In this document: one piece after another, positions 1 through 26,894 of the stretch
How the letters are laid out: each line of letters starts with the position of its first letter
How positions within the stretch are numbered: position 1 is the stretch's first letter
Source of the DNA: Eledone cirrhosa
Taxonomy: Eukaryota
Length of the DNA: 64,000 nucleotides
NCBI GenBank assembly: GCA_964016885.1
Contig: OZ024740.1
Span: forward strand, 806,001-870,000
Direction: 5' to 3'
Made by a program: the position numbers and the translations under genes
The notes under the pieces: generated by a model
What the model was told of the DNA's origin: nothing
Database searches by the model: none
The model's input: only the letters and a program-made list of their open reading frames with translations

Positions 1-3000
1 TACATTACTCTATATTTACACTACTCTATAATTACATTACTCTATAATTAAATTACTCTATATTTACACTACTCTATATTAACACTACTCTATATTTACA
101 CTACTCTATATTTACATTACACAATATTTACACTACTCTATATATACATTACTCAATATTTATGTTACTCTATAATTACATTACTCTATATTTACATTAC
201 TCTATAATTACATTACTTTATATTTACACTACTCTATATTGAAACTACTCTATATTTACACTACTCTATATTTACATTACTCTATAATTACACTACTTTA
301 TATTTACACTACTCTATATTTACATTACTCTTTATTTACACTACTCTATATTTACATTACTCTATTTTTACACTACTCTATATTTACATTATTCTATAAT
401 TATATTACTCTATATTTACATTACTCTATATTTACATTACTCTATATTTACATGACTCTATAATTACAATACTCTATAATTACATTGCTCTATATTTTCA
501 CTACTCTATATTTACACTACTCTATATTTACACTACTCTATATTTACATTACACTATATTTACACTACTCTATATATACATTACTATATATTTACACTAC
601 TCTATATTTACATTACTCTATATTTACATTACTCTATGTTTACATTACTCTATATTTACAATACTTTATATTTACACTACTCTATATTTACATTACTCTA
701 TATTTATATTACTCTATAATTACATTATTCTATAATTACATTAATCTATATTTACACTACTCTATATTTACATTACTCTCTATTTACACTACTCTATAAT
801 TACAATACTCTATAATTACATTACTCTATATTTACACTACTCTATAATTACATTACTCTATAATTAAATTACTCTATATTTACACTATATATTTACACTA
901 CTCTATATTTTCACTACTCTATATTTACATTACTCAATATTTACATTACCCTAAATTACATTACTCTATAATTACATTACTCTATATTTACATTACTCTA
1001 TAATTAAGTAACTCTATATTTACATTACTCTAAATTACATTATTCTATATTTACACTACACTATATTTACACTGCTCTATATTTACATTACTCTATATTT
1101 ACACTACTCTATATTTACACTACTCTATATTTACACTACTCTATAATTACACTATTCTATATTTACCTTACTCTATATATGTATTACTCTATATTTACAT
1201 TACTCTATATTTACACTACTCTATAATTACAATACTCTATAATTACATTGCTCTATATTTACACTACTCTATATTTACACTACTCTATATTTACATTAGA
1301 CTATATATACATTACTCTATATATACATTACTCTATATTTACACTACTCTATATTTACATTACTCTATATTTACATTACTCTAAATTACATTACTCTATA
1401 TTTACACTACTCTATTTTTACACTACTCTATATTTACATTACTTTATATTTACACTACTCTATATTTAAATTAATCTATATTTACACTACTCTATATTTA
1501 AATTACTCTATATTTACACTACTCTATATTTACATTACTCTATAATTACATTATTCTATATTTACACTACACTATATTTACACTGCTCTATATTTACATT
1601 ACTCTATATTTACACTACTCTATATTTACACTACTCTATATTTACACTACTCTATAATTACATTACTCTATATTTACACTACTCTATAATTACATTACTC
1701 TATATTTGCATTACTCTATATTTACACTACTCTATATTTACACTACTTTATATTTACATTACTCTATATTTACACTACTCTATATTTACATTACTCTATA
1801 TTTACACTACTCTATATTTACATTACTCTATATTTACACTACTCTATATTTACATTACTCTATATTTACACTACTCTATATTTACATTACTTTATAATTA
1901 CATTACTTTATAATTACATTACTCTATATTTACATTACACTATATTTACATTACTCTATAATTACATTACTCTATATTTAAATTACTCTAAATTACATTA
2001 CTCTATATTTACACTACTCTATATTTACATTACTCTATAATTACATTACTCTATATTTACATTACTCTATATTTACATTACTCTATATTTACATTACTCT
2101 ATATTTACACTACTCTATATTTACACTACTCTATATTTACATTACTCTATATTTACACTACTCTATATTTACATTACTCTATATTTACACTACTCTATAA
2201 TTACACAACTTTATATTTACATTACTCTATATTTACACTACTCTATATATACATTACTCTATATTTACATTACTCTATGTTTACATTACTCTATATTTAC
2301 AATACTTTATATTTACACTACTCTATATTTACATTACTCTATATTTATATTACTCTATAATTACATTATTCTATAATTACATTAATCTATATTTACACTA
2401 CTCTATATTTACATTACTCTCTATTTACACTACTCTATAATTACAATACTCTATAATTACATTACTCTATATTTACACTACTCTATAATTACATTACTCT
2501 ATAATTAAATTACTCTATATTTACACTATATATTTACACTACTCTATATTTACACTACTCTATAATTACATTACTCTATAATTAAATTACTCTATTTTTA
2601 CACTAATCTATATTAACATAACTCTATAGTTACACTACTCTATATTTACATTACACAATATTTACACTACTCTATATATACATTACTCTATATTTATATT
2701 ACTCTATAATTACATTACTCTATATTTACATTACTCTATAATTACATTACTTTATATTTACACTACTCTATATTGACACTACTCTATATTTACACTACTC
2801 TATATTTACATGACTCTATAATTACACTACTTTATATTTACACTACTCTATATTTACATTACTCTATATTTACACTACTCTATATTTACATTACTCTATA
2901 TTTACACTACTCTATATTTACATTACTCTATAATTACATTACTCTATATTTACATTACTCTATATTTACATTACTCTATATTTACATTACTCTATAATTA

Positions 3001-5534
3001 CAATACTCTATAATTACATTGCTCTATATTTACGCTACTCTATATTTATACTACTCTATATTTACACTACTCAATATTTACATTACACTATATTTACACT
3101 ACTCTATATATACATTACTCTATATTTACACTACTCTATATTTACATTACTCTTTAATTACATTACTCTTTATTTACATTACTCTATAATTACATTACTC
3201 TATATTTACATTACTCTAAATTAAATTACTCTATATTTACACTACTCTATATTTACAATACTCTATAATTACACTACTTTATATTTACATTATTCTATAT
3301 TTACACTACTCTATATATACATTACTCTATATTTACATTAGTATATATTTACACTACTCTATGTTTATAATACTTTATAATTACATTACTCTATGTTTAC
3401 ATTACTCTACATTTACATTACTCTATAATTACATTATTCTATATATACACTACTCTATATTTACATTACTCTATAATTACATTACTCTATATTTGCATTA
3501 CTCTATATTAACATTACACCATATTTACATTACTCTATAATTACATTACTCTATATTTACATTACTCTAAATTACATTACTCTATATTTATACTACTCTA
3601 TATATACATTACTCTATATTTACATTACTATATATTTACACTACTCTATATTTATATTACTCTATAATTATATTACTCTATATTTACATTACTCTATATT
3701 TACATTACTCTACATTTACATTACTCTATAATTACATTATTCTATATATACACTACTCTATATTTACATTACTCTATAATTACATTACTCTATATTTACA
3801 TTACTCTATATTTACATTACACCATATTTACATTACTCTATAATTACATTACTCTATATTTACATTACTCTAAATTACATTACTCTATATTTATACTACT
3901 CTATATATACATTACTCTATATTTACATTACTATATATTTACACTACTCTATATTTATATTACTCTATAATTATATTACTCTAAATTACATTACTCTATA
4001 TTTACACTACTCTATATTTACACTACTCTATATTTACATTACTCTATAATTACACCACTCTATATTTACATTACTCTATAATTACATTATTTATATTTAC
4101 ACTACTCTATATTTACATTACTCTATATTTACACTACTCTATATTTACATTACTCTATATTTACATTACTCTATATTTATATTACTCTATAATTACATTA
4201 CTCTATATTTACATTACTCTACATTTACATTACTCTATATTTATATTACTCTATAATTACATTACTCTATATTTACATTACTCTACATTTACATTACTTT
4301 ATAATTACATTACTCTATATTTACACTACTCTATATTTACATTACACTATATTTACACTACTCTATATATACATTACTCTATATTTACATTACTCTATAA
4401 TTACAGTACTCTATATTTACATTACTCTATAATTAAATTACTTTATATTTACACTACTCTATATTTACATTACTCTATATTTACACTACTCTATATTTAC
4501 ATTACTCTATATTTACATTACTCTATATTTATATTACTCTATAATTACATTACTCTATATTTACATTACTCTATATTTACACTACTCTATATTTATATTT
4601 CTCTTTAATTCCATTACTCTATATTTACATTACTCTATAATTACATTACTCTATATTTACATTACTCTAAATTAAATTACTCTATATTTACACTACTCTA
4701 TATTTACACTACTCTATAATTACACAACTTTATATTTACATTATTCTATATTTACACTACTCTATATATACATTACTCTATATTTACATTAATATATATT
4801 TACACTACTCTATGTTTATATTACTTTATAATTACATTACTCTATATTTACATTACTCTACATTTACATTACTCTATAATTACATTATTCTATATATACA
4901 CTACTCTATATTTACATTACTCAATAATTACATTACTCTATATTTACATTACTCTAAATTACATTACTTTATATTTATACTACTCTATATATACATTACT
5001 CTATATTTACATTACTATATATTTACACTTCTCTATATTTATATTACTTTATAATTACATTACTCTATATTTACATTACTCTACATTTACATTACTCTAT
5101 AATTACATTACTCTATATTTACACTACTCTATATTTACATTACACTATATTTACACTACTCTATATATACATTACTCTATATTTACATTACTCTATATTT
5201 ACACTACTCTATATTTACATTACTCTATAATTACATTACTCTATAATTACATTACTCTATATTTACATTACTCTATATTTACATTACTCTATATTTACAT
5301 TACTGTATAATTACAATACTCTATAATTACATTGCTCTATATTTACGCTACTCTATATTTACACTACTCTATATTTACACTACTCTATATTTACATTACA
5401 CTATATTTACACTACTCTATATATACATTATTCTATATTTACACTACTCTATATTTACATTACTCTATATTTACATTACTCGATATTTACAATACTTTAT
5501 ATTTACACTACTCTATATTTACAATACTCTATAA

Positions 5535-5656
5535 TATAGAGTAGTGTAAATATAGAGTAATGTAAATATAGAGTAGTGTAAATATAAAGTAATGTAATTA
5601 TAGAGTAATGTAAATATAGAGTAATGTAATTATAGAGTAATGTAAATGTAGAGTAA
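5535..5656 (-). repeat. 122-bp inverted block of the 16-bp satellite (copy 1)
   Basis: The sequence switches to tatagagtagtgtaaa... (reverse complement of the unit) at 5535 and switches back at 5657. Confidence 0.95.
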
Positions 5657-8600
5657 TTTACATTACTCTATAATTACATTACTCTATATTTACATTACTC
5701 TATAATTACATTACTTTATATTTACACTACTCTATATTTACATTACTCTATATTTACACTACTCTATATTTACATTACTCTATATTTACACTACTCTATA
5801 TTTAGATTACTCTATAATTACATTACTCTATATTTACATTACTCTATATTTACACTACTCTATATTTACATTACTCTTTAATTACATTACTCTTTATTTA
5901 CATTACTTTATAATTACATTACTCTATATTTACATTACTCTATATTTACATTAGACTATATTTACACTACTCTCTATATGAATTACTCTATATTTACATT
6001 ACTCTATAATTACCTTACTCTATAATTACATTATTCTATATATATTATTCTACATTATATATATACATTATTCTACATTATATTTGCATTACTCTATATT
6101 TATACTACTCTATATATACATTACTCTATATTTACATTACTATATATTTACACTACTCTATATTTATATTACTTTATAATTACATTACTATATATTTACA
6201 TTACTCTACATTTACATTACTCTATAATTACATTACTCTATATTTACACTACTCTATATTTACATTCCTCTATATTTACACTACTCTATATATACATTAC
6301 TCTATATTTACATTACTCTATAATTACACTACTCTATATTTACACTACTCTATATTAACATTACTTTATATTTACACTACTCTATATTTACATTACTCTA
6401 TATTTACATTACTCTATATTTACACTACTCTATATTTACATTACTCTATATTTACACTACTCTCTATTTACATTACTCTATAATTACATTACTCTATATT
6501 TACATTACTCTATATTTACACTACTCTATATTTACATTACTCATTAATTACATTACTCTTTATTTACATTTCTCTATAATTACATTACTCTATATTTACA
6601 TTACTCTAAATTAAATTACTCTATATTTACACTACTCTATATTTACAATACTCTATAATTACACTACTTTATATTTACATTATTCTATATTTACACTACT
6701 CTATATATACATTACTCTATATTTACATTAGTATATATTTACACTACTCTATGTTTATATTACTTTATAATTACATTACTCTATATTTACATTACTCTAC
6801 ATTTACATTACTCTATAATTACATTATTCTATATATACACTACTTTATATTTACATTACTCTATAATTACATTACTCTATATTTACATTACTCTAAATTA
6901 CATTACTCTATATTTATACTACTCTATATATACATTACTCTATATTTACATTACTATATATTTACACTACTCTATATTTATATTACTTTATAATTACATT
7001 ACTCTATATTTACATTACTCTACATTTACATTACTCTATAATAACATTACTCTATATTTACACTACTCTATATTTACATTACACTATATTTACACTACTC
7101 TATATATACATTACTCTATATTTACACTACTCTATATTTACATTACACTATATTTACACTACTCTATATATACATTACTCTATATATAAATTACTCTATA
7201 TTTACACTACTCTATATTTACATTACTCTATAATTACATTACTCTATATTTACATTACACCATATTTACATTACTCTATAATTACATTACTCTATATTTA
7301 CATTACTCTAAGTTACATTACTCTATATTTATACTACTCTATATATACATTACTCTATATTTACATTACTATATATTTACACTACTCTATATTTATATTA
7401 CTCTATAATTATATTACTCTATATTTACATTACTCTATATTTACATTACTCTATATTTACATTACTCTATATTTACACTACTCTATAATTACACCACTCT
7501 ATATTTACATTACTCTATAAGTACATTATTTATATTTACACTACTCTATATTTACATTACTCTATATTTACACTACTCTATATTTACATTACTCTATATT
7601 TACATTACTGTATATTTATATTACTCTATAATTACATTACTCTATATTTACATTACTCTACATTTACATTACTCTATATTTATATTACTCTATAATTACA
7701 TTACTCTATATTTACATTACTCTACATTTACATTACTTTATAATTACATTACTCTATATTTACACTACTCTATATTTACATTACACTATATTTACACTAC
7801 TCTATATATACATTACTCTATATTTACATTACTCTATAATTACATTACTCTATATTTACATTACTCTATAATTACATTTCTTTATATTTACACTACTCTA
7901 TATTTACATTAGTCTATATTTACACTACTCTATATTTACATTACTCTATATTTACATTACTCTATATTTATATTACTGTATAATTACATTACTCTATATT
8001 TACATTACTCTATATTTACACTAATCTATATTTATATTTCTCTTTAATTCCATTACTCTATATTTACATTACTCTATAATTACATTACTCTATATTTACA
8101 TTACTCTAAATTAAATTACTCTATATTTACACTACTCTATATTTACACTACTCTATATTTACATTACTCTATAATTACATTATTCTATATTTACACTACT
8201 CTATATTTACACTACTCTATATTTACATTACTCTATAATTACATTATTCTATATTTACATTACTCTATAATTACCTTACTCTATAATTACATTACTCTAT
8301 ATATATTATTCTACATTATATATATATACATTATTCTACATTATATTTGCATTACTCTATATTTATACTACTCTATATATACATTACTCTATATTTACAT
8401 TACTATATATTTACACTACTCTATATTTATATTACTTTATAATTACATTACTCTATATTTACATTACTCTACATTTACATTACTCAATAATTACATTACT
8501 CTATATTTACACTACTCTATATTTTCATTACACTATATTTACACTACTCTATATATACATTACTCTATATTTACATTACTCTATATTTACACTACTCTAT

Positions 8601-9033
8601 ATTTACATTACTCTATAATTACATTACTCTATAATTACATTACTCTATATTTACATTACTCTATATTTACACTACTCTATATTTACATTACACTATATTT
8701 ACACTACTCTATATATACATTACTCTATATTTACACTACTCTATATTTACATTACTCTATATTTACATTACTCTATATTTACATTACTCTATATTTACAT
8801 TACTCTATATTTACAATACTTTATATTTACACTACTCTATATTTACATTACTCTATATTTATATTACTCTATAATTACATTATTCTATAATTACATTAAT
8901 CTATATTTACACTACTCTATATTTACATTACTCTTTAATTACATTACTCTTTATTTACATTACTCTATAATTACATTACTCTATATTTACATTACTCTAA
9001 ATTAAATTACTCTATATTTACACTACTCTATAA

Positions 9034-9155
9034 TATAGAGTAGTGTAAATATAGAGTAATGTAAATATAGAGTAGTGTAAATATAAAGTAATGTAATTAT
9101 AGAGTAATGTAAATATAGAGTAATGTAATTATAGAGTAATGTAAATGTAGAGTAA
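9034..9155 (-). repeat. 122-bp inverted block of the 16-bp satellite (copy 2, identical to copy 1)
   Basis: Same 122-nt sequence as 5535-5656, including the tataaagt and tgtagagt variants. Offset is 3499 bp. Confidence 0.95.
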
Positions 9156-12100
9156 TTTACATTACTCTATAATTACATTTCTTTATATTTACACTACTCT
9201 ATATTTACGTTACTCTATATTTACACTACTCTATATTTACATTACTCTATATTTACACTACTCTATATTTAGATTACTCTATAATTACATTACTCTATAT
9301 TTACATTACTCTATATTTACACTACTCTATATTTACATTACTCTTTAATTACATTACTCTTTATTTACATTACTCTATAATTACATTACTCTATATTTAC
9401 ATTACTCTATATTTACATTAGACTATATTTACACTACTCTATATAAACATTACTCTATATTTACATTACTCTATAATTACCTTACTCTATAATTACATTA
9501 TTCTATATATATTATTCTACATTATATATATACATTATTCTACATTATATTTCCATTACTCTATATTTATACTACTCTATATATACATTACTCTATATAT
9601 ATATTACTATATATTTACACTACTCTATATTTATATTACTTTATAATTACATTACTATATATTTACATTACTCTACATTTACATTACTCTATAATTACAT
9701 TACTCTATATTTACACTACTCTATATTTACATTACACTATATTTACACTACTCTATATATACATTACTCTATATTTACATTACTCTATAATTACACTACT
9801 CTATATTTACACTACTCTATATTAACATTACTTTATATTTACACTACTCTATATTTACATTACTCTATATTTACATTACTCTATATTTACACTACTCTAT
9901 ATTTACATTACTCTATATTTACACTACTCTATATTTACATTACTCTATAATTACATTACTCTATATTTACATTACTCTATATTTACACTACTCTATATTT
10001 ACATTACTCATTAATTACATTACTCTTTATTTACATTTCTCTATAATTACATTACTCTATATTTACATTACTCTAAATTAAATTACTCTACATTTACACT
10101 ACTCTATATTTACACTACTCTATAATTACACTACTTTATATTTACATTATTCTATATTTACACTACTCTATATATACATTACTCTATATTTACATTAGTA
10201 TATATTTATACTACTCTACGTTTATATTACTTTATAATTACATTACGCTATATTTACATTACTCTACATTTACATTACTCTATAATTACATTATTCTATA
10301 TATACACTACTCTATATTTACATTACTCTATATTTACACTACTCTATAATTACAATACTCTATAATTACATTGCTCTATATTTACATTACTCTATATTTA
10401 CACTAATCTATATTTACACTACTCTATATTTACATTACACTATATTTACATTACTCTATATTTACACTACTCTATAATTACATTATGCTATATTTACATT
10501 ACTCTATATTTTTATTACTGTATATTTACATTACTCTATATTTACATTACTCTATATTTACACTACTCTATAATTACAATACTCTATAATTACCTTACTC
10601 TGTATTTACACTACTCTATATTTACATTACTCTATATTTACACTACTCTATAATTACATTACTCTATATTTACACTACTCTATATTTACACTACTAAATA
10701 TTTACACTACTCTATATTTACACTACTCTATATTTACATTACACTATATTTACACTACTCTATATATACATTACTCTATATTTACATTACTATATATTTA
10801 CACTCTATATTTATATTACTTTAAAATTACATTACCCTATATTTACATTACTCTACATTTACATTACTCTATAATTACATTACTCTATATTTACACTACT
10901 CTATAATTACAATACTCTATAATTAAATTATTCTATATTTACACTACTCTATATTTACACTACTCTATATTTACATTACTCTATATTTACATTACTCTAT
11001 ATCTTTATTACTCTATATTTACATTACTCTATATTTACATTACTCTATATTTACACTACTCTATAATTACAATACTCTATAATTACATTACTCTATATTT
11101 ACACTACTCTATAATTACATTACTCTATATTTACATTACTCTATATTTACACTACTCTATATTTACACTACTCTATATTTACATTACTCTATATTTACAC
11201 GACTCTATGTTTACATTACTCTATATTTATACTACTCTATATTTACATTACTTTATAATTACATTACTCTATATTTACATTACTCTATATTTACATTACT
11301 CTATAATTACATTACTCTATATTTACAATCCTCTAAATTAAATTACTCTATATTTACAGTACTCTATATTTACACTACACTATAATTACACTATATTATA
11401 TTTGCATTACTCTATGTTTATACTACTCTATATATACATTACTCTATATTTACATTACTATATATTTACACTACTCTATAGTTATATTTCTTTATAATTA
11501 CATTACTCTATATTTACATTACTCTATATTTACATTACTCTATAATTACATTACTCTATATTTACACTACTCTATATTTACATTACTCTATATTTACACT
11601 ACTCTATAATTACATTACTCTATATATACATTACTCTATATTTACATTACTCTATATTTACACTACTCTATATTTACATTACTCTATAATTACATTACTC
11701 TATATTTACATTACTCTAAATTAAATTACTCTATATTTACACTACTCTATATTTACACTACTCTATATTTACACTACTCTATATTTGCACTAAGCTATAT
11801 TTACATTACACTATACTTACACTACTCTATATATACATTACTCTATATTTACATTACTCTATAATTACTCTACTGTATAATTACATTACTCTATATTTAC
11901 ATTACTCTATATTTACACTACTCTATATTTCCAGTACTCTATAATTACATTACTATATATTTACACTACTCTATATTTACATTACTCTTTATTTACTCTA
12001 CTCTATAATTACAATACACTATAATTACAATACTCTATAATTACATTACTCTATATTTACACTACTCTATATTTACACTACTCTATATTTACATTACTCT

Positions 12101-15100
12101 ATATTTACATTACTCTATATTTACACCACTCTATAATTACATTATTCTATATTTAGATTACTCTATATTTTTATTACTCTATATTTACATTACTTTATAT
12201 TTACATTACTCTTTATTTACACTACTCTATAATTACAAAACTCTATAATTACATTACTCTATATTTACACTACTTTATAATTACATTACTCTATATTTAC
12301 ATTACTCTATATTTACACTACTCTATCTTTACACTACTCTATATTTACATTACTCTATATTTACACTACTCTGTATTTACATTACTCTATTTTTATACTA
12401 CTCTATATTTACATTACTTTATAATTACATTACTCTATATTTACATTACTCTATATTTACATTACTCTATAATTACATTACTCAATTTTTACATTACTCT
12501 AAATTAATTTACTCTATATTTACAGTACTCTATATTTACACTACACTATAATTACACTACATTATATTTGCATTACTCTATATTTATACTACTCTATGTA
12601 TACATTACTCTATATTTACATTACTATATAATTACACTACTCTATATTTATATTACATTATAATTACATTACTCTATATTTACATTACTCTACATTTACA
12701 TTACTCTATAATTACATTACTCTATATTTACACTACTCTATATTTACATTACACTATATTTACACTACTCTATATATACATTATTCTATATTTACATTAC
12801 TCTATAATTACATTACTCTATATTTACATCACTCTATAATTACATTACTTTATATTTACATTACTCTATATTAACATTACTCCATATTTACACTACTTTA
12901 TATTTACATTGCTCTATATTTACAATACTCTATATTTACATTAATCTATATTTACACTACTCTATATTTACATTACACTATATTTCCACTACTCTATATT
13001 TACACTACTCTATATTTACATTACTCTATATTTACACTACTCTATAATTACATTACTCTATATTTACATTACTCTATGTTTACACTACTCTATATTTAGA
13101 TTACTCTATAATTACATTACTCTATATTTACATTACTCTATAATTACATTACTCTATATTTACACTACTCTATATTTACACTACTCTATAATTACACTAA
13201 TTTATATTTACATTATTCTATAATTATACTACTCTATATATACATTACTCTATATTTACATTACTCTATATTTACATTACTCTATAATTACATTACTCCA
13301 TATTACACTACTCTATATTTACATTACTCTACATTTACATTACTCTATAATTACATTATTTTATATTTACACTACTCTATATTTACATTACTCTATATTT
13401 ACAGTACTCAATAATTACATTACTCTGTATTTACACTACTCTATATTTACATTACTCTATATTTATACTACTCTATATTTACATTACTTTATAATTACAT
13501 TACTCTATATTTACATTACTCTATAATTACATTACTCAATTTTTACATTACTCTAAATTAAATTACTCTATATTTACAGTACTCTATATTTACACTACAC
13601 TACAATTACACTACATTATATTTGCATTACTCTATATTTATACTACTCTATATATACATTACTCTATATTTACATTACTATATATTTACACTACTCTATA
13701 TTTATATTACATTATAATTACTTTACTCTATATTTACATTACTCTACATTTACATTACTCTATAATTACATTACTCTATATTTACACTACTCTATATTTA
13801 CATTACACTATATTTACACTACTCTATATATACATTATTCTATATTTACATTACTCTATAATTACATTGCTCTATATTTACATCACTCTATAATTACATT
13901 ACTCTATATTTACACTACTCTATAATTACATTATTCTATATTTACATTATTCTATATTTTTATTACTCTATTTTTACATTACTCTATATGTTCATTACTC
14001 TATATTTACACTACTCTATAATTACAATACTCTATAATTACTTTACTCTGTATTTACTCTATTCTCTATTTAAATTAATCTATATTTACACTATTTTATA
14101 ATTACATTACTCTATAATTAAATTACTCTATATTTACACTACTCTATATTTACACTACTCTATATTTACACTACTCTATATTTACATTACCCTATATTTA
14201 CACTAATCTATATATACATTACTCTATATTTACATTACTCTATAATTACACTACTCTATAATTACATTACTCTATATTTACATTACTCTATAGTTACACT
14301 ACTCTATATTTACACTATTCTATATTTACATTACTCTATATTTACATTACTCTATATTTACATTACTCTATATTTACATTACTCTATAATTACATTACTC
14401 TATATTTACATTACTCTAAATTAAATTAGTCTATATTTACACTACTCTATATTTACACTACTCTATAATTACACTACTTTATATTTGCATTACTCTACAT
14501 TTATACTACTCTATATATACATTACTCTATATTTACATTACTATATATTTACACTACTCTATATTTATATTACTTTATAATTACATTGCTCTATATTTAC
14601 ATTACTCTATATTTTTATTACTCTATATTTAGATTACTTTATGTTCACATTACTCTATATTTACATTACTCTATAATTACAATACTCTATAATTACATTA
14701 CTCTATATTTACACTACGCTATATTTACACTACTCTATGTTTACACTACTCTATACTTACATTACTCTATCTTACACTACTCTATATTTACATTACTCTA
14801 TATTTACACTACTCTATATTTACATTACTTTATAATTACATACTCTATATTTACATTACTCTAAATTAAATTACTCTATATTTACAGTACTCTATATTTA
14901 CACTACTCTATAATTACACTAAATTATATTTGCATTACTCTATATTTATACTACTCTATATGTACATTACTCTATATTTACATTACTATATATTGACACT
15001 ACTCTATATTTATATTACTTAATAATTACATTAATCTATGTTTACGTTACTCTACATTTACATTACTCTATAATTACATTACTCTATATTTAAACTACTC

Positions 15101-18100
15101 TATATTTACATTACACTATATTTACACTACTCTATATATACATTACTATATATTTATATTATTCTATAATTACATTACTCAATATTTACATTACTCTATA
15201 ATCACATTATTTTATATTTACACTACTCTATATTTACACTACTCTATATTTACATTGCTCTATATTTACACTACTCTATATTTACATTACTCTATATTTA
15301 CACTACTCTATATTTACATTACTCTATAATTAAATTACTCTATATTTACACTACTCTATATTTACACTACTCTATATTTACATTACTCTATATTTACACT
15401 ACTCTATATTTGCATTACTCTATAATTACATTACTCTATATTTACATTACTCTATATTTACACTACTCTATATTTACATTACTCTATAATTACATTACTC
15501 TATATTTACATTACTCTATAATTACATTACTCTATATTTACACTACTCTATATTTACACTACTCTATAATTACACTACTTTATATTTACATTATTCTATA
15601 TTTACACTACTCTATATATACATTACTCTATATTTACATTACTATATATTTACACTACTCTATGTTTATATTACTTTATAATTACATTACTCTATATTTA
15701 CATTACTCTATATTTACACTACTCAATAATTACATTACTCTATATTTACACTACTCTATATTTACATTACTCTATAATTAAATTACTCTATATTTACACT
15801 ACTCTATATTTACACTACTCTATATTTACATTACTCTATATTTACACTACTCTATATTTGCATTACTCTATAATTACATTACTCTATATTTACATTACTC
15901 TATATTTACACTACTCTATATTTACACTACTCTAAATTAACATTACTCTATATTTATACTACACTATAATTACAATATTCTATAATTACATTACTCTATA
16001 TTTACACTACTCTATATTTACACTACTCTATATTTAGATTACTCTATATTTACATTACTCTATATTTACACTACTCTATAATTACATTATTCTATATTTA
16101 CATTACTCTATATTTTTATTACTCTATTTTTACATTACTCTATATTTACATTACTCTATATTTACACTACTCTATAATTACAATACTCTATAATAACTTT
16201 CCTCTATGTTTACATTACTCTATAATTAAATTACTCTATAATTACATTATTTTATATTTACACTACTCTATATTTACACTACTCTATATTAACATTATTT
16301 TATATTTACACTCCTCTATATTTACATTGCTCTATATTTACACTACTCTATATTTACACTATTCTCTATTTACACTACTCTATATTTACATTACACTATA
16401 TTTACACTACTCTATATATACATTACTCTATATTTACATTACTCTATATTTACACTACTCTATATTTACACTTCTCTATATTTACATTCCTTTATATTTA
16501 CATTACTCTATATTTACATTACTCTATAATTACATTACTCCATATTTACATTACTCTATATTTACATTACCCAATATTTACATTACTCTATAATTACATT
16601 ACTCTATATTTACATTACTCTATATATACATTACTCTATATTTACACTACTCTATATTTACATTACTCTATAATTACATTACTCTATATTTACAATACTC
16701 TATAATTACATTACTATATATTTACATTACTCTAAATTAAATTACTCTATATTTACACTACTCTATATTTACATTACTCTATATTTACACTACTCTATAT
16801 TTACACTACTCTATATTTACATTACTCTATATTTACACTACTCTATATTTACACTACTCTATAATTACATTACTCTATATTTACATTACTCTATAATTAC
16901 ATTACTCCATATTTACATTACTCTATATTTACATTACTTTATAATTACATTACTCTATATTTACATAACTCTAAATTAAATTACTCTATATTTACACTAC
17001 TCTATATTTACACTACTCTATAATTACATTATTCTATAATTACATTACTCTATATTTACACTACTTTATATTTACACTACTCTATATTTACATTACACTA
17101 TATTTACACTACTCTATATATACATTACTCTATATTTACATTACTCTATAATTACACTACTCTATATTTACATTACTCTATATTTTCACTACTCTATATT
17201 TACACTACTCTATAATTACACTACTTTATATTTACATTATTCTATATTTACACTACTCTATATTTATATTACTTTATAATTACATTATTCTATATTTACA
17301 TTACTCTACATTTACATTACTCTATAATTACATTACTCTATATTTACACTACTCTATATTTACACTACTCTATATTTACACTACTCTATATTTACATTAC
17401 TCTATATTTACATTACTCTATATTTACATTACTCTATATTTACATTACTCTATATTTACACTACTCTATAATTACAATACTCTATAATTACATTACTCTA
17501 TATTTACATTACTCTATAATTACATTACTCTATATTTACATTACTCTATATTTACATTACTCTATATTTACATTACTCTATAATTACATTACTCTATATT
17601 TACACTACTCTATCAATAAACTACTTTATATTTGCATTAGTCTATATTTATACTACTCTAAATATACATTACTCTATATTTACATTACTATATATTTACA
17701 CTACTCTATATTTATATTACTTTATAATTACATTACTCTATATTTACATTACTCTACATTTACATTACTCTATAATTACATTACTCTATATTTACACTAC
17801 TCTATATTTACACTACTCTATATTTACATTACTCTACTTTATATTTACATTATTCTATATTTACACTACTCTATATTTATATTACTTTATAATTAAATTA
17901 CTCTATATTTACATTACCCTACATTTACATTACTCTATAATTACATTACTCTATATTTACACTACTCTGTATTTACATTACTCTATATTTACACTACTCT
18001 ATATTTACACTATTCTATATTTACACTACTCTATATTTACATTACTCTATATTTACATTACTCTATATTTACACTACTCTATAATTACATTATTCTATAT

Positions 18101-18774
18101 TTACATTACTCTATATTTTTATTACTCTATATTTACATTACTCTATAATTACATTACTCTATATTTACACTACTCTATATTTACATTACTCTATATTTAC
18201 CCTACTCTATAATTACATTACTCTATATTTACACTACTTTATATTTACACTACTCTATATTTACATTACTCTATATTTATATCACTCTATAATTACATTT
18301 TTCTATAATTACATTAATCTATATTTACACTACTCTATATTGATATTACTCTATATTTACACTACTCTATAATTACAATACTCTATAATTACATTACTCT
18401 ATATTTACACTACTCTACAATTAGATTACTCTATAATTAAATTACTCTATATTTACACTACTCTATATTTACACTACTCTATATTTACACTACTCTATAT
18501 TTACATTACACTATATTTACACTATTCTATATATACATTACTCTATATTTACATTAATTTATAATTACATTACTCTATATTTACATTACTCTATATTTAC
18601 ATTACTCTATATTTACATTACTCTATATTTATTTACACTACTCTATATTTACATTACTCTATATTTACACTAATCTATATTTACACTACTCTATATTTAC
18701 ATTACTCTATATTTACATTACTCTATAATTACATTACTCTATATTTACATTACTCTATATTTACATTACTCTAT

Positions 18775-18990
18775 ATTTACATTATTCTATATATAGTACT
18801 ATATTTTCAAAATAAAGCCTTTATCTCCAAAAACTATCTCACCTAATATGTAATCAATGAGATTTTGATATTATTTATTTTCAGAACAATACCTTAACAT
18901 CAGTATGAGCGACCAGTTACGGCTGGTTTGAACAGATAGAGATGAGATAATTCTGGCTGGACATGGCCGGTTTAAATACTAAATGATTAA
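18775..18990 (-). mobile_element. Diverged piggyBac-like MITE body and terminus fused to the end of the 16-bp array
   Basis: Aligns by eye along its length with the reverse complement of 25874-26084 (e.g. gagattttgatattatttattttcagaacaataccttaac vs aagattttgacattagttattttgagaataataccttaac; gtttgaacaga; gagataattctggc). Ends in a degenerate TIR taaatactaaatga plus TTAA (18987-18990). Confidence 0.88.
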
Positions 18991-19069
18991 TGACTAAAAG
19001 AGCCTTTTAACCTACCTGCTTTCTACTTTGAAAAATGTTAATAATGTTTAGATTCCATTATAACAAAAC

Positions 19070-19145
19070 TTACGGGGTTGATAATATAAAGTACCAGTAA
19101 TGTACTGGGTAATTACTGGCCTTGTGCCAAAAGTAGAAACAATTA
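19070..19145 (+). mobile_element. SINE-like 3' fragment
   Basis: ggggttgataatataaagtaccagt...tactggg...ggccttgtgccaaaa. The same motif (ggttgataaaataaagtac) recurs at ~24477-24495. It resembles cephalopod SINE tails, from memory only. Confidence 0.5.
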
Positions 19146-19193
19146 TAACAAAACTTTTCATCAAATATATTCCAAATGTTTCATATTCTGCAG

Positions 19194-19351
19194 TTCTGTT
19201 CTCCAAAGATAATCAACCAGTTTTAGACCTGATTCAGACAGAATCGCAAACAAATTTCTCACCTATAAAGTTTGCTAACAGCTACTGGGACTACAATGCC
19301 TTCTCGTTTCTAATGTCATCAGGTGCAATTAGTGAAGCTGTTATTGTCAAG
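19194..19351 (+). CDS. Internal exon A of a host gene (xLFSKDNQPVLDLIQTESQTNFSPIKFANSYWDYNAFSFLMSSGAISEAVIVK)
   Basis: Acceptor ttctgcag|, donor AAG|gtctgt. Open frame, phase 1 to phase 0. Non-repetitive composition. Confidence 0.65.
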
Positions 19352-19479
19352 GTCTGTATTTTAATTCTTCATGCCATAGCTTAATTCTAAAACTGATAAT
19401 TTATCTATTTAGATTATCAGGAATAATTAAGACAAATAAAATATTTAAATTGGGATTTATTAATTTCTTTTGTTGTTAG

Positions 19480-19715
19480 TAATTTGATTTAAATTTATAT
19501 ATTTTTTTTTAGTTTTATTTAAATTTCTATAATTTTTAAAATTTTATCCAAATTTCTATAATTTTTTTAATTTGATTTAAATTTCTATATTTTTTTTAGT
19601 TTTATTTAAATTTCTATATATTCTTTTTTAGTTTCATTTAAATTTCTATAATATTTTTAATCTGATTTAAATTTCTATAATTTTTTAAATTTGATTTAAA
19701 TTTCTATAATTTTCT
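19480..19715. repeat. AT-rich ~30-bp intronic minisatellite (aatttgatttaaatttctataattttttt-like)
   Basis: About 7-8 imperfect copies containing atttaaatttctata, lying between exons A and B. Confidence 0.8.
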
Positions 19716-19727
19716 TTTAAACTTCAG

Positions 19728-19794
19728 GTGCTCCTTGAATGTGCTTATAAAAATGATACATTGATGTATAATTACTCAGTTCCTATAGAGAAAG
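19728..19794 (+). CDS. Internal exon B (VLLECAYKNDTLMYNYSVPIEK+G)
   Basis: Acceptor ttttaaacttcag|, donor AAAG|gtcagt. 67 bp, phase 0 to 1, in frame with exon A. Confidence 0.7.
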
Positions 19795-19805
19795 GTCAGT
19801 ACTAA

Positions 19806-19930
19806 CATATGTGTACATATATATATAATATATATAATATATATATCATATATGTGTACATACATATATAATTTATATATATAATATATATATAATACAT
19901 ATATATATAATTTATATATATAATATATAT
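19806..19930. repeat. Compound (AT)n / catatatgtgtaca module, left part
   Basis: The same modules (tatcatatatgtgtacatacatatata, taatttatatatataat) continue at 21291-21541 and 22677-22692. Confidence 0.85.
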
Positions 19931-20032
19931 TCAGTAGTTAAGCAAATCAAGACCACAAGCTCACATATAAGACATTAGTCGAAAAGTATCAACATTAACT
20001 GCAGTTTAATATAAAAAAGGGGTAATAATGTC

Positions 20033-20157
20033 AGTTTACAATTGTTTCACTACTCCATATAATGTTTCTGGATCAATCGATGGTAATATTGTTATTGATT
20101 TGGTTCAGAGAAAGATAATTAACATAGAATAATATTATGGAACAGGTCCTCAGAACT
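20033..20157 (-). ncRNA. Type I hammerhead ribozyme motif (PLE-associated)
   Basis: Minus strand reads AGTT-CTGAGGA-C-CTGTTCCATA...TATGGAGTAG-T-GAAAC-AATT-GTA-AACT. It has both catalytic boxes, stem I AGTT/AACT, a 10-bp stem II with G-U pairs, and a palindromic mini stem III. Confidence 0.72.
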
Positions 20158-20585
20158 TAAAGTTAGATAATGAAAATATTAATATTTATAAAGTAGAAAT
20201 AAAAATAAAATAAAATAAGAGGGTTACGTGTCTGTAAATAATCGTCAGATTAGCAGGTCCCTTGGCACTGGAAAATTCAAGTGTATGGTATAAAGAAACG
20301 TTACATATCTGTCGAGGCTGAAGGTAAACAATGCCGTCTAACGCACAACAAAATGGCTTCTTGTAGGGAAATTACCTTATTGTACAGAGATGGGTTTCAG
20401 GGGAGGCAACTCCTTGAAGATCCAAGTGCGACAATGAGAGTTGTAACTAAGATAATGAAAAGAGGTAGCTTATAGGTAAAGTTATAATGAGATATGTGAC
20501 TAAGATAATGCTAAGGAGGTAACTTATAGGTGTTTACGTGGAGGACTAAATATGTTTTAATTTGTTAGTTATAGTAAATGATAGG

Positions 20586-21158
20586 CTAAGGTGGGTCAAA
20601 TATTCTGTTAGCAAAGGAGCTCGCTCTGCGGTGGTGGCAGTTGATGACCAACTCATTCCTGTCATTTATGGGGGGTGGCCTTGACAGAGTTATGTGATAG
20701 GCCTCGGTGAGACAGAGATCGCAACAATTTCTTCTCCCATTAAACGCTGGAGATCTAGCCAAGATAACCCAAGTTAGTGAGTGTTCAATGTTGGCTAGTT
20801 TAAGGTTTTTAACGAGCCTAGCTAGAGAAGTAGAGCATCTATGGCCAGGGTCGTGGAAGGAAAATGAGTGCGCGTTATATCGAACCTTAAATGGGTTAGA
20901 TTTAGAGCCAATATAGGAGTTAGTAGATGAGGCCATTCTAACGATGCACCTATATACGATATTGGGCGTAAGGCACTGCCCGTTAAGCAGGCATGCAGTG
21001 GGGTTACGGCAGTTGCAATTAGGATTGCGATTAATGGGAGGAGGGTTGTTTAAACTATGCGGCTGGTGTGTACTAGAGGCATTGGAGGGGGGAGTTCTGC
21101 TACTAGGATAAGTATTGGTGTGGTTGCGTGGTGTACTTATAGGGGGTGGTGGTGTCAC
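20586..21158 (-). pseudogene. GIY-YIG (Uri) endonuclease domain of the Penelope-like element
   Basis: VY...YIG motif, conserved R (KVRY), E (LCLTE) and N (INDRNE), plus a Cys-rich linker, as in PLE endonucleases. The upstream linker appears disrupted near the poly-G run at ~21160-21171, and the RT is absent. Confidence 0.85.
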
Positions 21159-21290
21159 AGGGGGGGGGGGAGTTATATTTTTTTAGTTTATGATGGTTGC
21201 TAAATGCGATGTGGTTAGCTAAGTTCGGTGTGGTGGAGAAGGAGATTTTTATATTGTTTTTATTAAAGAGTTTGTAATATCTATGGTTTT

Positions 21291-21541
21291 ATATATATAT
21301 ATATATATATATAATACATACATATATAATTTATATATATAATACATATATCATATATGTGTACATACATATATATATAATTTATATATATAATATATAT
21401 ATCATATATGTGTACATATACATATATATATAATTTATATATATAATATATATATATATATAATACATATATATATATAATTTATATATAAAATATATAT
21501 ATATTATATGTCTACATATATATATATATAATTTATATATA
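21291..21541. repeat. Compound (AT)n / catatatgtgtaca module, right part
   Basis: Repeated tatcatatatgtgtaca and taatttatatat modules matching 19806-19930. Confidence 0.85.
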
Positions 21542-22676
21542 CTAGCTGACGTACCCAGCTTCGCCTGGGTAAACAGATGATAAGAGAAGACAGGTAAAAG
21601 AGAACATGACTGTATTGGATGTTTGTCTGGTTACAGTATGAGGCGAGTCCATGGTGTCTGTGTGATACAGAAAACAGTAAAAAAAAATCTTCCAGATATA
21701 CCAGATTTTTCGTTGTATCGTTTGTGCATAGTATATGAACAATTCTAGGTGCCCCCACCTAGAATAGTGACCTCTAGGAGATTATTCATCTTCTGCCTGA
21801 CTGTAAAACGTGTATCATTGCATAGACGTGGTTGTTCCACGTTTCTCAAAAGGATGATGGAAGTTCCAATCTTTTATATTATATGTAGATATAGATATAG
21901 ATAATTAATATAAAAAATGATGCTCAGCCAGTTCGTCTTTAACCATCGCAGCACGCCGTCGCTGCTTGGCTCCAGTGTTTCGTTGGCGTCATTCAGCCAG
22001 CTCCTCTTCTTTCATGGCGGCACATCTTCGCCTCTGAAGTTCGGTGTTCCGATGGTGCTGTTCGGGCCCGTTTTTCTTCATTCCTGGCTGCACGCCGTCG
22101 CCGCTGTAGTTCACTGTTTGATAAAGTCGAACTGCTTTTATTATCAGTATTCACTTCGAGCAATTGTCAAAAAATGACACAATAATAAATATAAAAGATG
22201 TCTGTCAATGTAAAAAAATGTCCCTATTTACTCCCTTCACAACTCTGTGTATGTTAGACTGACAGACAGGCACACAGACAGATAAACTGCGTGGCGATTG
22301 TGGAACGCCCCACGTACACACACATACACGCATGGAAACGCGCACATGCATGCAAACTTACACACACACCCGTGCACTTACACACACTTACACACTCACA
22401 CATGTTGATAGTTTTTACTTTCTGTGGAACGCTGCACGCACGCACACACACACATAAACATACGCGCACGTACATACACACGCACACATGGTAATAGTTA
22501 CAGCGTTCACTTTGCCTCTCTGTTTCTTACTCTCCCCTCTCACTCCCTCATTGGCATTATGCATATTAATTTAAGTTTGGCGTCATTGAGGTGGGCAGAG
22601 TCGTTTGAAACCTATGAACCAATGATAATCGAGAATTATGACACACGGAATACTGACGTTAAAATTAATATATAGA
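21542..22676 (-). mobile_element. Non-autonomous Helitron
   Basis: Minus strand begins A|TCTATATATTAAT (22676) and ends with hairpin TACCCAG-gcgaag-CTGGGTA, 6 nt, then CTAG|T (21542). It is inserted in an A|T dinucleotide with no TSD. It has internal (GACA)n/(CA)n tracts and decayed 23-aa Arg/Glu repeats. Confidence 0.82.
22255..22490. repeat. Degenerate (GACA)n/(CA)n microsatellite inside the Helitron
   Basis: gacagacaggcacacagacaga; cacacacacatacacg... Confidence 0.85.
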
Positions 22677-22693
22677 TAATATATATATCATAA

Positions 22694-24221
22694 TTCTGTC
22701 TGAACAACGGTGCTACTCCAGAACAGTGGAAAACTGCCAGTGTCGTTCCTCTGTTCAAAAAGGGTGACCGCACATCACCTGTGAACTATCGTCCAGTCAG
22801 TCTTACTAGCTGCATTGCCAAACTGATGGAATCCTGTGTCAGAGAAACACTTTGGAACTTCTGGAACTCTCACAGTCTTATCCGGCCCTAGCAATTTGGG
22901 TTTATCCCTAACTCCAGCTACTGTGATCAACTTATCGAGTTTCTTGAAGACATCACCCGGATCACTGATGGCGGCTCATGGGTGGATGTTGTTTACCTTG
23001 ACTTTGCTAAAGCTTTCAATTCTGTGCCATACAAAAGACATGACAAAACTCTCTGCAATGGGTGTGAAGCATGACCTTTTTAACTGGTTGAAGTTCTTCA
23101 TTCTCAGTCGAAGAGAGGAAGTGACGGTTCTAGGACAGCATTCTTGACTGTATGAGATGTCATCTGATGTACCACAGGGATCTGTTTTTGGTCCCCTTTT
23201 GTTTGTGGCATATATTAATGATATAGATGCCAACTTAAAGAATGCCACAGTACTGAAATATGCAAATGAAATCAGGCTGTACCTTGAGATAAAAAGGACA
23301 GATCCTGAACACTATAGATCTTTCCTGCAATCAGACCTGGTCACAATGCAACAATGGATCACAGACTGGCAACTCAAGTTGGCTGTGGACAAGTGTACCA
23401 CCATGCATTTTGGGAGTAAAAACCCAGCGTCCACATACTCCCTCCACAACACTAATATCAAGATGTCTTTTTGTGAACATGACCTGGGCATTACGGTCAG
23501 CAGCAATTTGCGTTGGACAAAGCACGTCTCTAAAATTCTCAAGAAGGCCGAGGGTGTCTTAGCATCACTCAGCAAGACCTTTGTCAGCCGCTCTCCAGCT
23601 ATCTATTTAAAGCTTTACGTAGCTATGGTGCGGCCACACTTGGAATTTGCATCACCAGTCTGGAACCCCTATCTTGCTCAGTATATTGACTACCTGGAAA
23701 CTGTTCAGAGACGTTCAACCAAGCCAATACCCTCCATCAGGCATCTACCATACTCTGAACGCCTTGCTTCCCTGGGCATGGATACATTGAAGCTCCGACG
23801 TCTGGCAACTGACTTGGTAAACACCCACAAAATTGTTAACCATCTTGCCAACAATAACCCTGAGCACTTTTTTGAATTCCATGTGTCTAACACACGTGGA
23901 CATACCTACAATGTCAGAAAACAGCACAGCTCCCATGACTTTCAGAAACATTTTTTCACGCCCAGAGTTGCTGAAGCATGGAACAACTACCTGCATCAGT
24001 TGTTAGCTGTCGAGACACTGCATTCTTTAAAACCTCCAGGCTTCCTGAAATTTGCCAACACTACAACTGATATCCCCCCTCCATACACACGCACACATGT
24101 ATATCATGACTCATACACTGTACACCTTCCTGACATTTGTACATTCTATTCACTATACATGCATCTTTGATGAGTTGTAGTGCACCTGAGCACTGTACAC
24201 AATAATTTCATTATTATTATT
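22694..24221 (+). mobile_element. 5'-truncated CR1/L2-type LINE, decayed reverse transcriptase plus 3' UTR and (TTA)n tail
   Basis: Encodes WKTASVVPLFKKG..NYRPVSLTSCIAKLMES, QFGF, DVVYLDFAKAFNSVP, VPQGSVFGPLLF.AYIND, KYANE (degenerate YADD) and VRPHLEFASPVWNP. Has in-frame stops and frameshifts. Ends cattattattattaa. Confidence 0.93.
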
Positions 24222-24439
24222 AACATAAACCACTGCCTCATGGCCCCGGTGGACAGGATGGAGAAGACAACTCCAGAGGATGGCAAAGGAGACACGCTGG
24301 AACCAAACTACAGAAGGACAATCTTCGTCTTTAATTTATGTTAACATTTCGTATTCTATCAACTGATTACCATTGATATTGATTGCAAAATCAATTGATT
24401 GGTAGACAACACTGTCTAGTTATATACCTAGTCAAACAA

Positions 24440-24496
24440 TCCTACCAGAATCAAGTTTCAATTTTCATCCTTCCAAGGTTGATAAAATAAAGTACA
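24440..24496 (+). mobile_element. SINE-like fragment interrupted by the second LINE piece (appears to resume at ~25326-25350)
   Basis: ttttcatccttccaaggttgataaaataaagtac, then after the LINE tail ttaatactggggattgatttatc. Compare with the uninterrupted aaagtaccagtaatgtactggg at 19088-19109. Confidence 0.5.
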
Positions 24497-25325
24497 CTCG
24501 CGGGCATGCCTACAAAGTCAGAAAATATTACAGCTCCCATGAATTTATATTCAGAGTTGCTGAAGCATGGAACAAACTATCTGCATCAGTTGTTAGCTGT
24601 CGAGACACTGCATCCTTCAAAACCTCCATGGAACAAACTACCTGCATCAGTTGTTAGCTGTCGAGACACTGCATCCTTCAAAACCTCCATGGAACAAACT
24701 ACCTGCATCAGTTGTTAGCTGTCGAGACACTGCATCCTTCAAAACCTCCATGGAACAAACTACCTGCATCAGTTGTTAGCTGTCGGGACACTGCATCCTT
24801 CAAAACCTCCATGGAACAAACTACCTGCATCAGTTGTTAGCTGTCGAGACACTGCATCCTTCAAAACCTCCATGGAACAAACTACCTGCATCAGTTGTTA
24901 GCTGTCGGGACACTGCATCCTTCAAAACCTCCATGGAACAAATTACCTGCATCAGTTGTTAGCTGTCGAGACACTGCATCCTTTAAAACTTCCATGGAAC
25001 AAACTACCTACATCAGTTGTTAGCTGTCGAGACACTGCATCCTTCAAAACCTCCATGGAACAAACTACCTGCATCAGTTGTTAGCTGTTGGGACACTGCA
25101 TCCTTCAAAACCTCCATGCTTCCTGAAATTCACCAACACTACACCTGATATCCCCCCTCCATACACATGCACACATGTATCTGTGTATATCATGACTCAT
25201 ACACTGTTCACTTCCCTGACATTTGTACATTATTCTATGTACTATACATGCACCTTTGATCAGTTGTAGTGTACCTTAGCACTGTACACAATAATGTATT
25301 TTCATTATTATTATTATTATTATTA
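24497..25325 (+). mobile_element. Second 3' fragment of the same LINE family, with internal minisatellite and (TTA)n tail
   Basis: Matches 23891-24221 (tacaaagtcagaaaa...ctcccatga; cagagttgctgaagcatgg; tatcccccctccatacac; gcactgtacacaataat). Ends (tta)n. Confidence 0.93.
24566..25114 (+). repeat. 61-bp minisatellite x9 derived from the LINE 3' end
   Basis: Unit catggaacaaactacctgcatcagttgttagctgtcgagacactgcatccttcaaaacctc starts every 61 bp from 24566 to 25054. A single copy is present in the first LINE at ~23977-24036. Confidence 0.97.
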
Positions 25326-25460
25326 CTTAATACTGGGGATTGATTTATCATTTTTGTTACCATATTTCTAATAAAAATGCTGCCTATGAATTTTAATTAA
25401 TTTTGAAAATAATCAAAAATTCTAGGACTACCTAATCCAATCTATTCTTCTTATTTTTAA

Positions 25461-25869
25461 CCCTTTTTGTACCTAGTTACATAAAACCAACCCTACTCTT
25501 ATGATACACAGCTGTATATTTTCAAATATTCATGCTTACTGTATTTCTCGGCATCGAAGATGCTACTTTTTTCCTAAAATAAGTCTCAAAAATCTACCAT
25601 GCGTCGTGGAAGCCAAAGGTTATTTATTATTTTTTTTCAAAATTTTGGTTGTCAAAATTAAGGTGGGTCCTTGAGGATGAAGCGTCTTCGACGCCGGGAA
25701 ATACGGTATATCAAATGATTTTCTTAAGAATTTTTCAAGTGACATTATAAACACCAACTTACTAATGAAAAAATTGATAATTTTATTAAATTCTTCCAAT
25801 TTTTTTTTTATTATTTTCAAAATTGAAACATTGGAAGTGAATTTCATTAGTAATGCAGTTAAAAAAGGA
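25461..25869. mobile_element. Older TTAA-flanked piggyBac-like MITE (degenerate TIRs)
   Basis: TTAA|CCCTTTTT... at 25457-25468 and ...AAAAAAGGA|TTAA at 25861-25873. Its right end resembles the reverse complement of the fragment at ~25345-25425. Confidence 0.5.
25539..25706. mobile_element. Tc1/mariner-superfamily (Tc2/pogo-like) MITE with TA TSD
   Basis: TA|ctgtatttctcggcatcgaagatgct ... agcgtcttcgacgccgggaaatacgg|TA. The 26-bp TIRs match at 22/26. Confidence 0.85.
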
Positions 25870-25873
25870 TTAA

Positions 25874-26084
25874 CCCTTTAGCATTTAAACTGGCCGTATC
25901 TGGCCAGAATTATCTCACCTCTTTCTGTTCAAACTGGCTGTAACCGGCCACTCATACTAACGTTAAGGTATTATTCTCAAAATAACTAATGTCAAAATCT
26001 TGTAGATTCAATAATACATGAGATAATTAAGTGTTTACCATGAAAATATAATAGTAAATATAGAGTAATGTAAATGCTAAAGGG
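25874..26084 (+). mobile_element. Intact 211-bp piggyBac-like MITE
   Basis: TTAA at 25870-25873 and 26085-26088. Perfect 14-bp TIRs CCCTTTAGCATTTA / TAAATGCTAAAGGG. The right subterminus contains aaatatagagtaatgtaaa, the reverse complement of the 16-bp satellite unit. Confidence 0.92.
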
Positions 26085-26304
26085 TTAAGACAGCAGGGTG
26101 TGATTTCAGAGATTTGGCTCCTATTTCTAGCAGGGCAAGTAACCATGTTCAAGTTCTTCTTGTAACTAAGTGACTATAGAATCACTGCATTGCTATTTTC
26201 AATGCCGCATGTTGTTGTTGTTGTTGTTGTCATCATCATTGTTGTTGTCTATTAGTTTGTCAGACAACAATCTCTAACTGTATATAACTGGTTTCTGTTC
26301 CTAG

Positions 26305-26379
26305 AAAGCTGTGAACTCTCCTGTGGTGGAGGTGGAGATCTTTATGAATGTTCTTGCTTGTGTAAAAATGGTAGAGGAG
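26305..26379 (+). CDS. Internal exon C, Cys-rich EGF-like segment (ESCELSCGGGGDLYECSCLCKNGRG)
   Basis: Acceptor gtttctgttcctag|, donor GAG|gtaggt (alternative donor at 26370|gtagag, same phase). 75 bp, phase 1-1, compatible with exon B. C-x3-C...C-x-C-x-C-x2-G spacing is EGF-like. Confidence 0.62.
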
Positions 26380-26890: not shown

Positions 26891-26894
26891 CCAA

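Follow-up and report, generated by a model that had tools for sequence, protein, structure and literature searches.

The window analysed here is a stretch of 64,000 nucleotides from Eledone cirrhosa (contig OZ024740.1, positions 806,001 to 870,000). [quoted passage not shown] An array of more than 18 kb had been noticed in an earlier reading of the letters alone (in the following, the sequence-only reading), and this was borne out by Tandem Repeats Finder (TRF) and by a monomer parse, which place it at positions 1-18792 of the plus strand with the consensus TTTACATTACTCTATA. TRF gave 1175.9 copies with a period of 16 and 86% matches. Since the array runs off the left end of the window and is already under way before base 1, its 18.8 kb and 1,175 units are lower bounds. 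In the monomer parse, 1125 of 1179 pieces had a length of 16 nt and 213 distinct monomers were found; the GC content of the array is 20%.

Self-comparison of the array revealed internal rearrangements. A block of about 7.6 units is inverted at 5535-5656 (minus strand), and a second copy of the same sequence, carried along by a block duplication, lies 3,499 bp downstream at 9034-9155 (minus strand). Both inverted blocks form local palindromic junctions. The largest internal block duplication extends over 5678-10367 (plus strand): positions 5678-6900 are repeated at 9145-10367, 218 units apart and 97% identical. Overall, repeated blocks measure 0.3-1.2 kb, are 94-97% identical and lie 3467, 3439, 1641 and 448 bp apart. 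A regular higher-order repeat was considered and rejected, as only a weak peak at 218 units was present, due to one duplication. Adjacent units are not more similar to each other than distant ones. With at least 18.8 kb, spread variants and block duplications, the array is a long head-to-tail satellite DNA with variant turnover. Together with a second long array at the other side of the window it makes up 86% of the 64 kb, which is the only hint at a heterochromatic, centromeric or subtelomeric position.

The copy of the MITE with a single unit (25874-26084, minus strand) has a length of 211 bp and perfect 14-bp terminal inverted repeats (TIRs) at 25874-25887 and 26071-26084, enclosed by TTAA target site duplications at 25870-25873 and 26085-26088. 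A 10-bp subterminal inverted repeat is located at 25908-25917 and 26019-26028. The TIRs start with CCCT, no open reading frame of at least 90 amino acids was found across the element, and an Rfam scan of 18000-28500 gave no match. Close to one end, 22 nt at 26054-26075 (minus strand) are in phase with the array, corresponding to 1.4 units, i.e. one 16-bp unit between two ATTTAC direct repeats. They are bases 10-31 of the minus-strand element, and the first 5 nt are shared with the TIR and mirrored at the other element end. By contrast, matches in array phase did not exceed 13 nt in 2000 shuffles; the longest elsewhere was 9 nt in non-array DNA of 19001-27900 outside the element and 10 nt in the second long array. 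The description in the sequence-only reading of an intact MITE with TTAA duplication, 14-bp TIRs and one unit overlapping the TIR thus holds, and the minus strand reads as quoted there. The word intact applies to the ends only, though: a 10-bp block is missing from the body, and many of its sites do not have the base found in most of the family.

The TTAA duplication, the TIRs and the short, non-coding, high-copy nature of the element agree with a piggyBac-type MITE, for which TIRs of 12-19 bp with terminal CC[C/T]T are given in the available part of PMC2872659. Assignment to the T2-MITE/Kolobok elements (Xmix type) was rejected since the termini are CCCT and not AGGRR/RR, as given in the available part of PMC6004289. 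An autonomous piggyBac partner with the same ends was not present within the 64-kb window.

At its right side the array passes into another copy of this MITE. The last unit, which starts at 18776, is followed by a partial unit and then by the non-repetitive MITE body, so that the junction (18776-18809, plus strand) lies at the place of the unit in the intact copy and in register with it. The body (18810-18972, plus strand) keeps the 10-bp block that is absent from the neighbouring copy. It ends in a decayed TIR (18973-18986, plus strand), in which 11 of 14 bases are kept and the terminal GGG is changed to TGA, and directly after it stands a TTAA (18987-18990), likely the target site duplication of the array-bearing copy. 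The degenerate TIR and TTAA had been pointed out before. BLAST aligned the junction region to the minus strand of 25874-26084 with 77% identity over 209 columns (E value 2e-43), which is the significant alignment that the sequence-only reading had called for; pairing without gaps of 18832-18991 with 25869-26028 gave 81% over 160 nt. The MITE body without the unit reached an alignment score of 163 compared to at most 33 in 2000 resamples. By BLAST and by register, the array thus occupies the homologous place of the single unit on its right side, the side that the window contains.

The MITE family in public sequencing runs

To judge the two copies against their family, four public runs (X8, X11, X1 and X2) of 13 listed for 18800-27900 were compared with the intact element and its flanks at 80% likeness. 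Three of the 13 runs hold half of the matching words; X3-X7 (share 0.05), X9, X10, X12 and X13 were left out. The number of matched records was 42,979 for X8, 32,918 for X11, which consists of raw restriction-site-associated DNA (RAD) reads, 52,044 for X1 and 1,773 for X2. Loose ends with unrelated flanks start just outside the TTAA on both sides, before 25870 in 1,275 (X8), 1,859 (X1) and 123 (X2) contigs and in 5,836 reads (X11), and behind the TTAA at 26088 in 1,161 (X8) and 1,974 (X1) contigs and in 6,954 reads (X11). Agreement of the flanks outside the TTAA was 0.36-0.39 at both ends, as for unrelated sequence. Distinct insertion flanks numbered more than 1,000 in each of two organisms and more than 100 in a third. 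At least three organisms thus carry this family as a TTAA element of high copy number. Where the records covered the DNA flanking the intact copy, they stemmed from other repeats.

In the usual form of the family the unit runs straight into the TIR, and there is no step in raw-read depth between the two (about 12,300, 12,900 and 10,600). The same MITE end is tandemly duplicated in a few other copies by a joint from 26076 back to 26034, seen in 115 reads from 22 starts (X11), three contigs (X1) and one contig (X2). Contigs that link two copies, end to start, numbered 70 (X8) and 72 (X1) for one joint row. Because such copy-to-copy joints are common in the runs, a neighbour 7 kb from the array is unremarkable.

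Between the array-bearing and the neighbouring copy, 31 of 160 sites are different, and 13 of these changes are of the CpG-decay type; the Jukes-Cantor (JC) distance of the two is 0.22 or about 0.11 per copy. For comparison with the family majority 40 of 229 substitution rows were available, of which 21 fell into the ungapped alignment and 20 were used; site 26028 was left out since it is the edge of a deletion, and the array copy has the neighbour's base there. Where most X11 reads differ from the neighbour (16 sites), the array-bearing copy has the majority base at 13, the neighbour's base at one and another base at two. Outside the ungapped stretch it has the neighbour's base at 26049 and a variant at 26057. 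The 10-bp block of the array copy (region 18813-18827) was also recognized by eye in loose ends before 26029-26034 in all four runs. Since the family majority is better represented in the array-side body than in the neighbour, the latter is a sibling and not the parent: judged by these bases, the two are separately decayed copies, and the one at 25874-26084 is not the unexpanded progenitor. A special tie between the two local copies was rejected, the neighbour's minority base being shared at only one of the 16 sites. Hence the family member 7 kb away is real, as the sequence-only reading had stated, but carries no special weight, since the family is very abundant and this member is no closer to the array copy than others.

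Most family copies have a C at 25912, creating an EcoRI site (25908-25913) at which RAD reads end in bulk, whereas both copies in the window have an A. Contig word depth over the unit was discarded as a measure of satellite abundance because word depth is not copy number. A metagenome scan with the 18-nt TTAA plus TIR pattern yielded 40 loci with extensions only at chance level, which were rejected as chance matches (best E value 0.001 for the 18 nt itself).

Origin of the array

That the transposon gave rise to the satellite, as suggested by the sequence-only reading, is the favoured direction because the 16-mer of the MITE is both the array consensus and the centre of the variants. The majority base of the array equals that of the element's unit at all 16 positions, and 229 of 1125 full-length units are exactly of the element type. 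When the inverted blocks are set aside, the medoid of the remaining 1117 units is the element's unit, with a mean distance of 1.17 compared to 1.49 for the next. From it, a single change leads to either of the two common variants, A at position 1 and C at position 7, which occur together in 27 units versus 85 expected, the P value of this repulsion being inflated since monomers are not independent. Divergence at the other sites is 5.1% on the element-type background versus 2.2% on the C7 background. The position of the unit as medoid, the repulsion of the variants and the background diversity are the pattern expected of an ancestral monomer from which derived variants later swept through the array. 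In likeness to the element's unit, the last 5-15 units exceed 96-98% of equally sized windows, a weak effect that depends on window sizes chosen by the analyst and is gone at 30 units. Since unit and TIR overlap, the element occurs in several organisms and the monomers show this pattern, it can be inferred that the 16-bp unit very probably originated from the MITE.

The satellite is joined in register to the piggyBac-type MITE, and we assign a probability of about 0.62 to the explanation that it arose in place, from the single 16-mer beside the left TIR, by a more than 1000-fold expansion. In this case a MITE would have inserted at the TTAA at 18987-18990. The first tandem doubling of the 16-mer may have been mediated by the short direct repeats of the ATTTAC type, which are spaced by 16 bp, through slippage or microhomology repair, and slippage and unequal exchange would have lengthened the array. 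Kilobase block duplications and an inversion, both visible in the array, would have followed. Mobility was presumably lost, with the right TIR decayed and the left TIR displaced by more than 18 kb. A TTAA and the left TIR are predicted at the far left end, and the whole array is predicted to be one giant copy of the MITE. A rough age estimate is about 20 million years from the units versus the element's unit (divergence 7.3%, JC 0.077) and about 30 million years from the two element copies, calculated with a rate of 0.0036 per million years from another species (PMC13282606); CpG decay and sweeps of variants inflate these ages. Nothing points to a function for the host, and a neutral satellite of the heterochromatin type is the best reading of the array.

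The subterminal duplication from 26076 to 26034 and the expansion of a LINE (long interspersed nuclear element) unit nearby speak in favour of instability at this MITE end. The latter, a 61-bp unit expanded 9-fold inside a LINE fragment 6 kb away, demonstrates that in-place expansion is not rare here. On the other hand, several points weigh against an origin in place. The left array end lies beyond the window, and no other TIR-like sequence was found inside window or array. Neither intermediates with 2-20 units nor a 16-nt insertion or go-back joint were detected in the four runs, for which 12 of the 34 rows on indels and 15 of the 259 on joints were covered; this negative is weak, since the tool may not report events that short and arrays are under-sampled by RAD reads. 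Of the two direct repeats, the second is imperfect (26057 A>T) in 39-47% of the family sequence matched, the array-side partial unit carries this variant, and the founding copy may have had only five of six matching direct-repeat bases. Among single monomers the C7 variant leads with 251 units, ahead of the element type with 229, the repulsion of variants suffers from the dependence among monomers, and the read comparison covered the intact copy, not the junction.

A less probable but possible alternative is that the satellite stems from the family's 16-mer but was born in another copy, the present junction being a later, one-sided product of recombination via the shared 22 nt or of array-flank exchange. 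All of the direction evidence is compatible with it as well, only one side of the array is visible, and kilobase duplications and an inversion have rearranged the units. Moreover, one-sided 'intermediate' arrays of oyster Cg170/HindIII are ascribed to recombination in the available part of PMC12628747. It requires, though, an extra event on just 22 nt of homology, and the units adjacent to the junction are slightly more element-like, which is a weak argument against it.

It is improbable that the satellite is the older partner and that an ancestor of the MITE captured one unit beside its TIR, a copy of which then inserted at or recombined with the array edge. Capture of an existing repeat is proposed for miDNA4 in the available part of PMC12628747, and a captured unit would be exactly of the central type by chance in about one fifth of cases (229 of 1117 units). 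Yet the unit shares 5 nt with the TIR, the decayed partial copy behind it belongs to the element, the unit end of the element was found in runs of three organisms, and an inserted copy would show the left TIR and TTAA at the junction, where there are none. A chance likeness of AT-rich sequence or a mis-join of the assembly, finally, is very improbable, for although the unit is AT-rich and the reads compared covered the other copy, the 22-nt match and the body score exceed those of the shuffles (at most 13 nt) and resamples (163 versus at most 33), the array consists of 213 distinct monomers and block duplications of 94-97% identity and not of collapsed identical copies, and the junction is exactly in register with the family structure.

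The sequence-only reading went beyond an origin in place and regarded the MITE family as a seeder of the satellite. Only one junction is known so far, and the rows examined contained no 16-nt insertion or go-back joint, which is weak evidence; that the 16-mer expanded independently in many copies, and that most 16-bp arrays are giant MITE copies with both ends kept, is therefore an idea that did not gain support and is considered unlikely. If it were true, nature would have repeated the transition of a single-copy sequence into a satellite of many kilobases several times, in replicates that can be dated and set against thousands of unexpanded controls. Regardless of that, the start of a satellite from non-tandem sequence is mostly reconstructed in hindsight. 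In the present case one junction has been preserved, and the ancestral single unit is available along with its element and thousands of siblings that did not expand, so that a search of the genome would make the birth and age of this array directly testable.

Other features of the window

The 61-bp unit mentioned above is repeated 9.1 times (96% matches) at 24566-25118 inside a 3' LINE fragment. The LINE copy at about 23975-24035 contains it unexpanded, whereas the unit of the expanded copy is bounded by a CATG repeat. This array is a second in-place expansion within a transposon in the window. The right part of the window (27931-64000) is filled by a second large satellite with a 52-bp unit in at least 694 copies, in which offsets of roughly 1.4 kb (about 27 units) and 2.8 kb (about 54 units) recur. 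This satellite showed no link to the MITE or the 16-mer, nor was a source found within 18800-27930.

Between the two satellites, 22700-24210 is a frameshifted LINE reverse-transcriptase fragment. Pfam searches with five frames of the window detected only RVT_1, in one of them (23148-24167). The nearest named relatives of this frame among 50 matches listed are Octopus proteins with 72-77% identity; unnamed matches and those from other animals mostly have 31-51%, apart from two short unnamed ones with 61% and 66%. These identities point to an octopus as the likely host. An open frame of 198 codons at 20586-21182 (minus strand) lies between related AT-rich microsatellite blocks (19807-19930 and 21290-21541). 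We take it to resemble the GIY-YIG endonuclease end of Penelope-type elements; Pfam did not support this, and the protein search returned nothing significant among 50 candidates listed. The possibility that 20060-21290 is a mitochondrial insert was rejected, as translation with table 5 gave no such gene. An AT-rich minisatellite with a period of 29 and 7.9 copies is located at 19480-19721. A short element at 21542-21890 has ends reminiscent of those of non-autonomous Helitron/Helentron elements. Next to a (CAT)n tract (26631-26843), a broken frame with a Cys/His motif (26960-27500) is, we assume, reminiscent of the C-terminus of CRE- or Hero-type non-LTR (long terminal repeat) elements; it had no Pfam match.

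Comparison with known systems

The expansion of a unit inside a MITE is a known route to satellites (miDNA4, Xstir, Tetris), and the following comparisons refer to the available parts of the papers cited. The closest parallel is miDNA4 of Xenopus tropicalis (PMC12628747, PMC9659126, PMC12054243), a MITE which mostly has one monomer and sometimes an array; that the model published for it shows the same anatomy speaks for an origin in place. A single monomer is present in 61% of its copies and lies between AT-rich direct repeats of at least 5 bp, and long arrays lose the inverted repeats by mutation. The corresponding flanking repeat here is 6 nt long in the intact copy and imperfect both in 39-47% of the family sequence and at the array junction. 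Unlike the piggyBac-type element described here, miDNA4 belongs to Tc1/mariner and its elements have 300-600 bp, compared to an array of at least 18.8 kb, whereas the unit of the present MITE has only 16 bp and overlaps the TIR. Multi-unit intermediates are known for miDNA4, while none occurred among the rows examined here, and the authors of that work proposed repeat capture.

Xmix and Xstir of Xenopus (T2-MITE, presumed Kolobok; PMC6004289, PMC12628747) likewise represent a TTAA-targeting MITE of which an internal segment became a large tandem family, and composite forms of MITE plus array exist. Their termini are of the Kolobok type (AGGRR) in contrast to the piggyBac-type CCCT, and the stem-loop joining two nearby elements that was proposed for them is not required by anything observed here.

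In the small CMITE elements of Acropora corals (PMC2872659), which are also flanked by TTAA, have 13-14-bp TIRs starting with CCCT and reach about 1,600 copies, the tandem arrays consist of whole elements and not of a subterminal piece, as far as a comparison by description can tell.

Neither the MITE family nor the 16-mer nor a piggyBac-derived satellite was reported in the literature searched, most subscription journals and repeat databases being outside its reach, and a search of literature text with four 13-nt motifs retrieved only a paper on an unrelated aptamer. A piggyBac-type satellite source is not mentioned in the available parts of PMC12628747 and PMC9659126, and no cephalopod satellite study was found in the same literature. 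In the annotation of Octopus vulgaris, 36 families of piggyBac elements account for 15.6 Mb and 80 families of satellites for 3.12% of the genome according to the available part of PMC13282606, and both the MITE and the 16-bp satellite may already be contained in the sequence library of that work.

As regards scale, Tetris/TIR-220 of Drosophila virilis (PMC4079207), in which an internal repeat has been amplified within a DNA transposon, provides a precedent. Up to 66 copies of 220 bp were reported, about 14.5 kb by our own arithmetic, and long arrays between element ends were seen on DNA fibres; hence the kilobase scale of the 16-bp array is not new. Tetris differs in being a foldback element with several 220-bp TIR repeats from the start, while here one 16-bp unit stands opposite at least 1,175 copies. 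The sequence-only reading had supposed that family and scale might be undescribed. With miDNA4 and the Tetris model the route itself has already been published, but the family was not found described. The array is a real and clean example of this known route in a family and a host group for which no description was found; it adds a piggyBac-type satellite source and a cephalopod case and leaves the known models unchanged.

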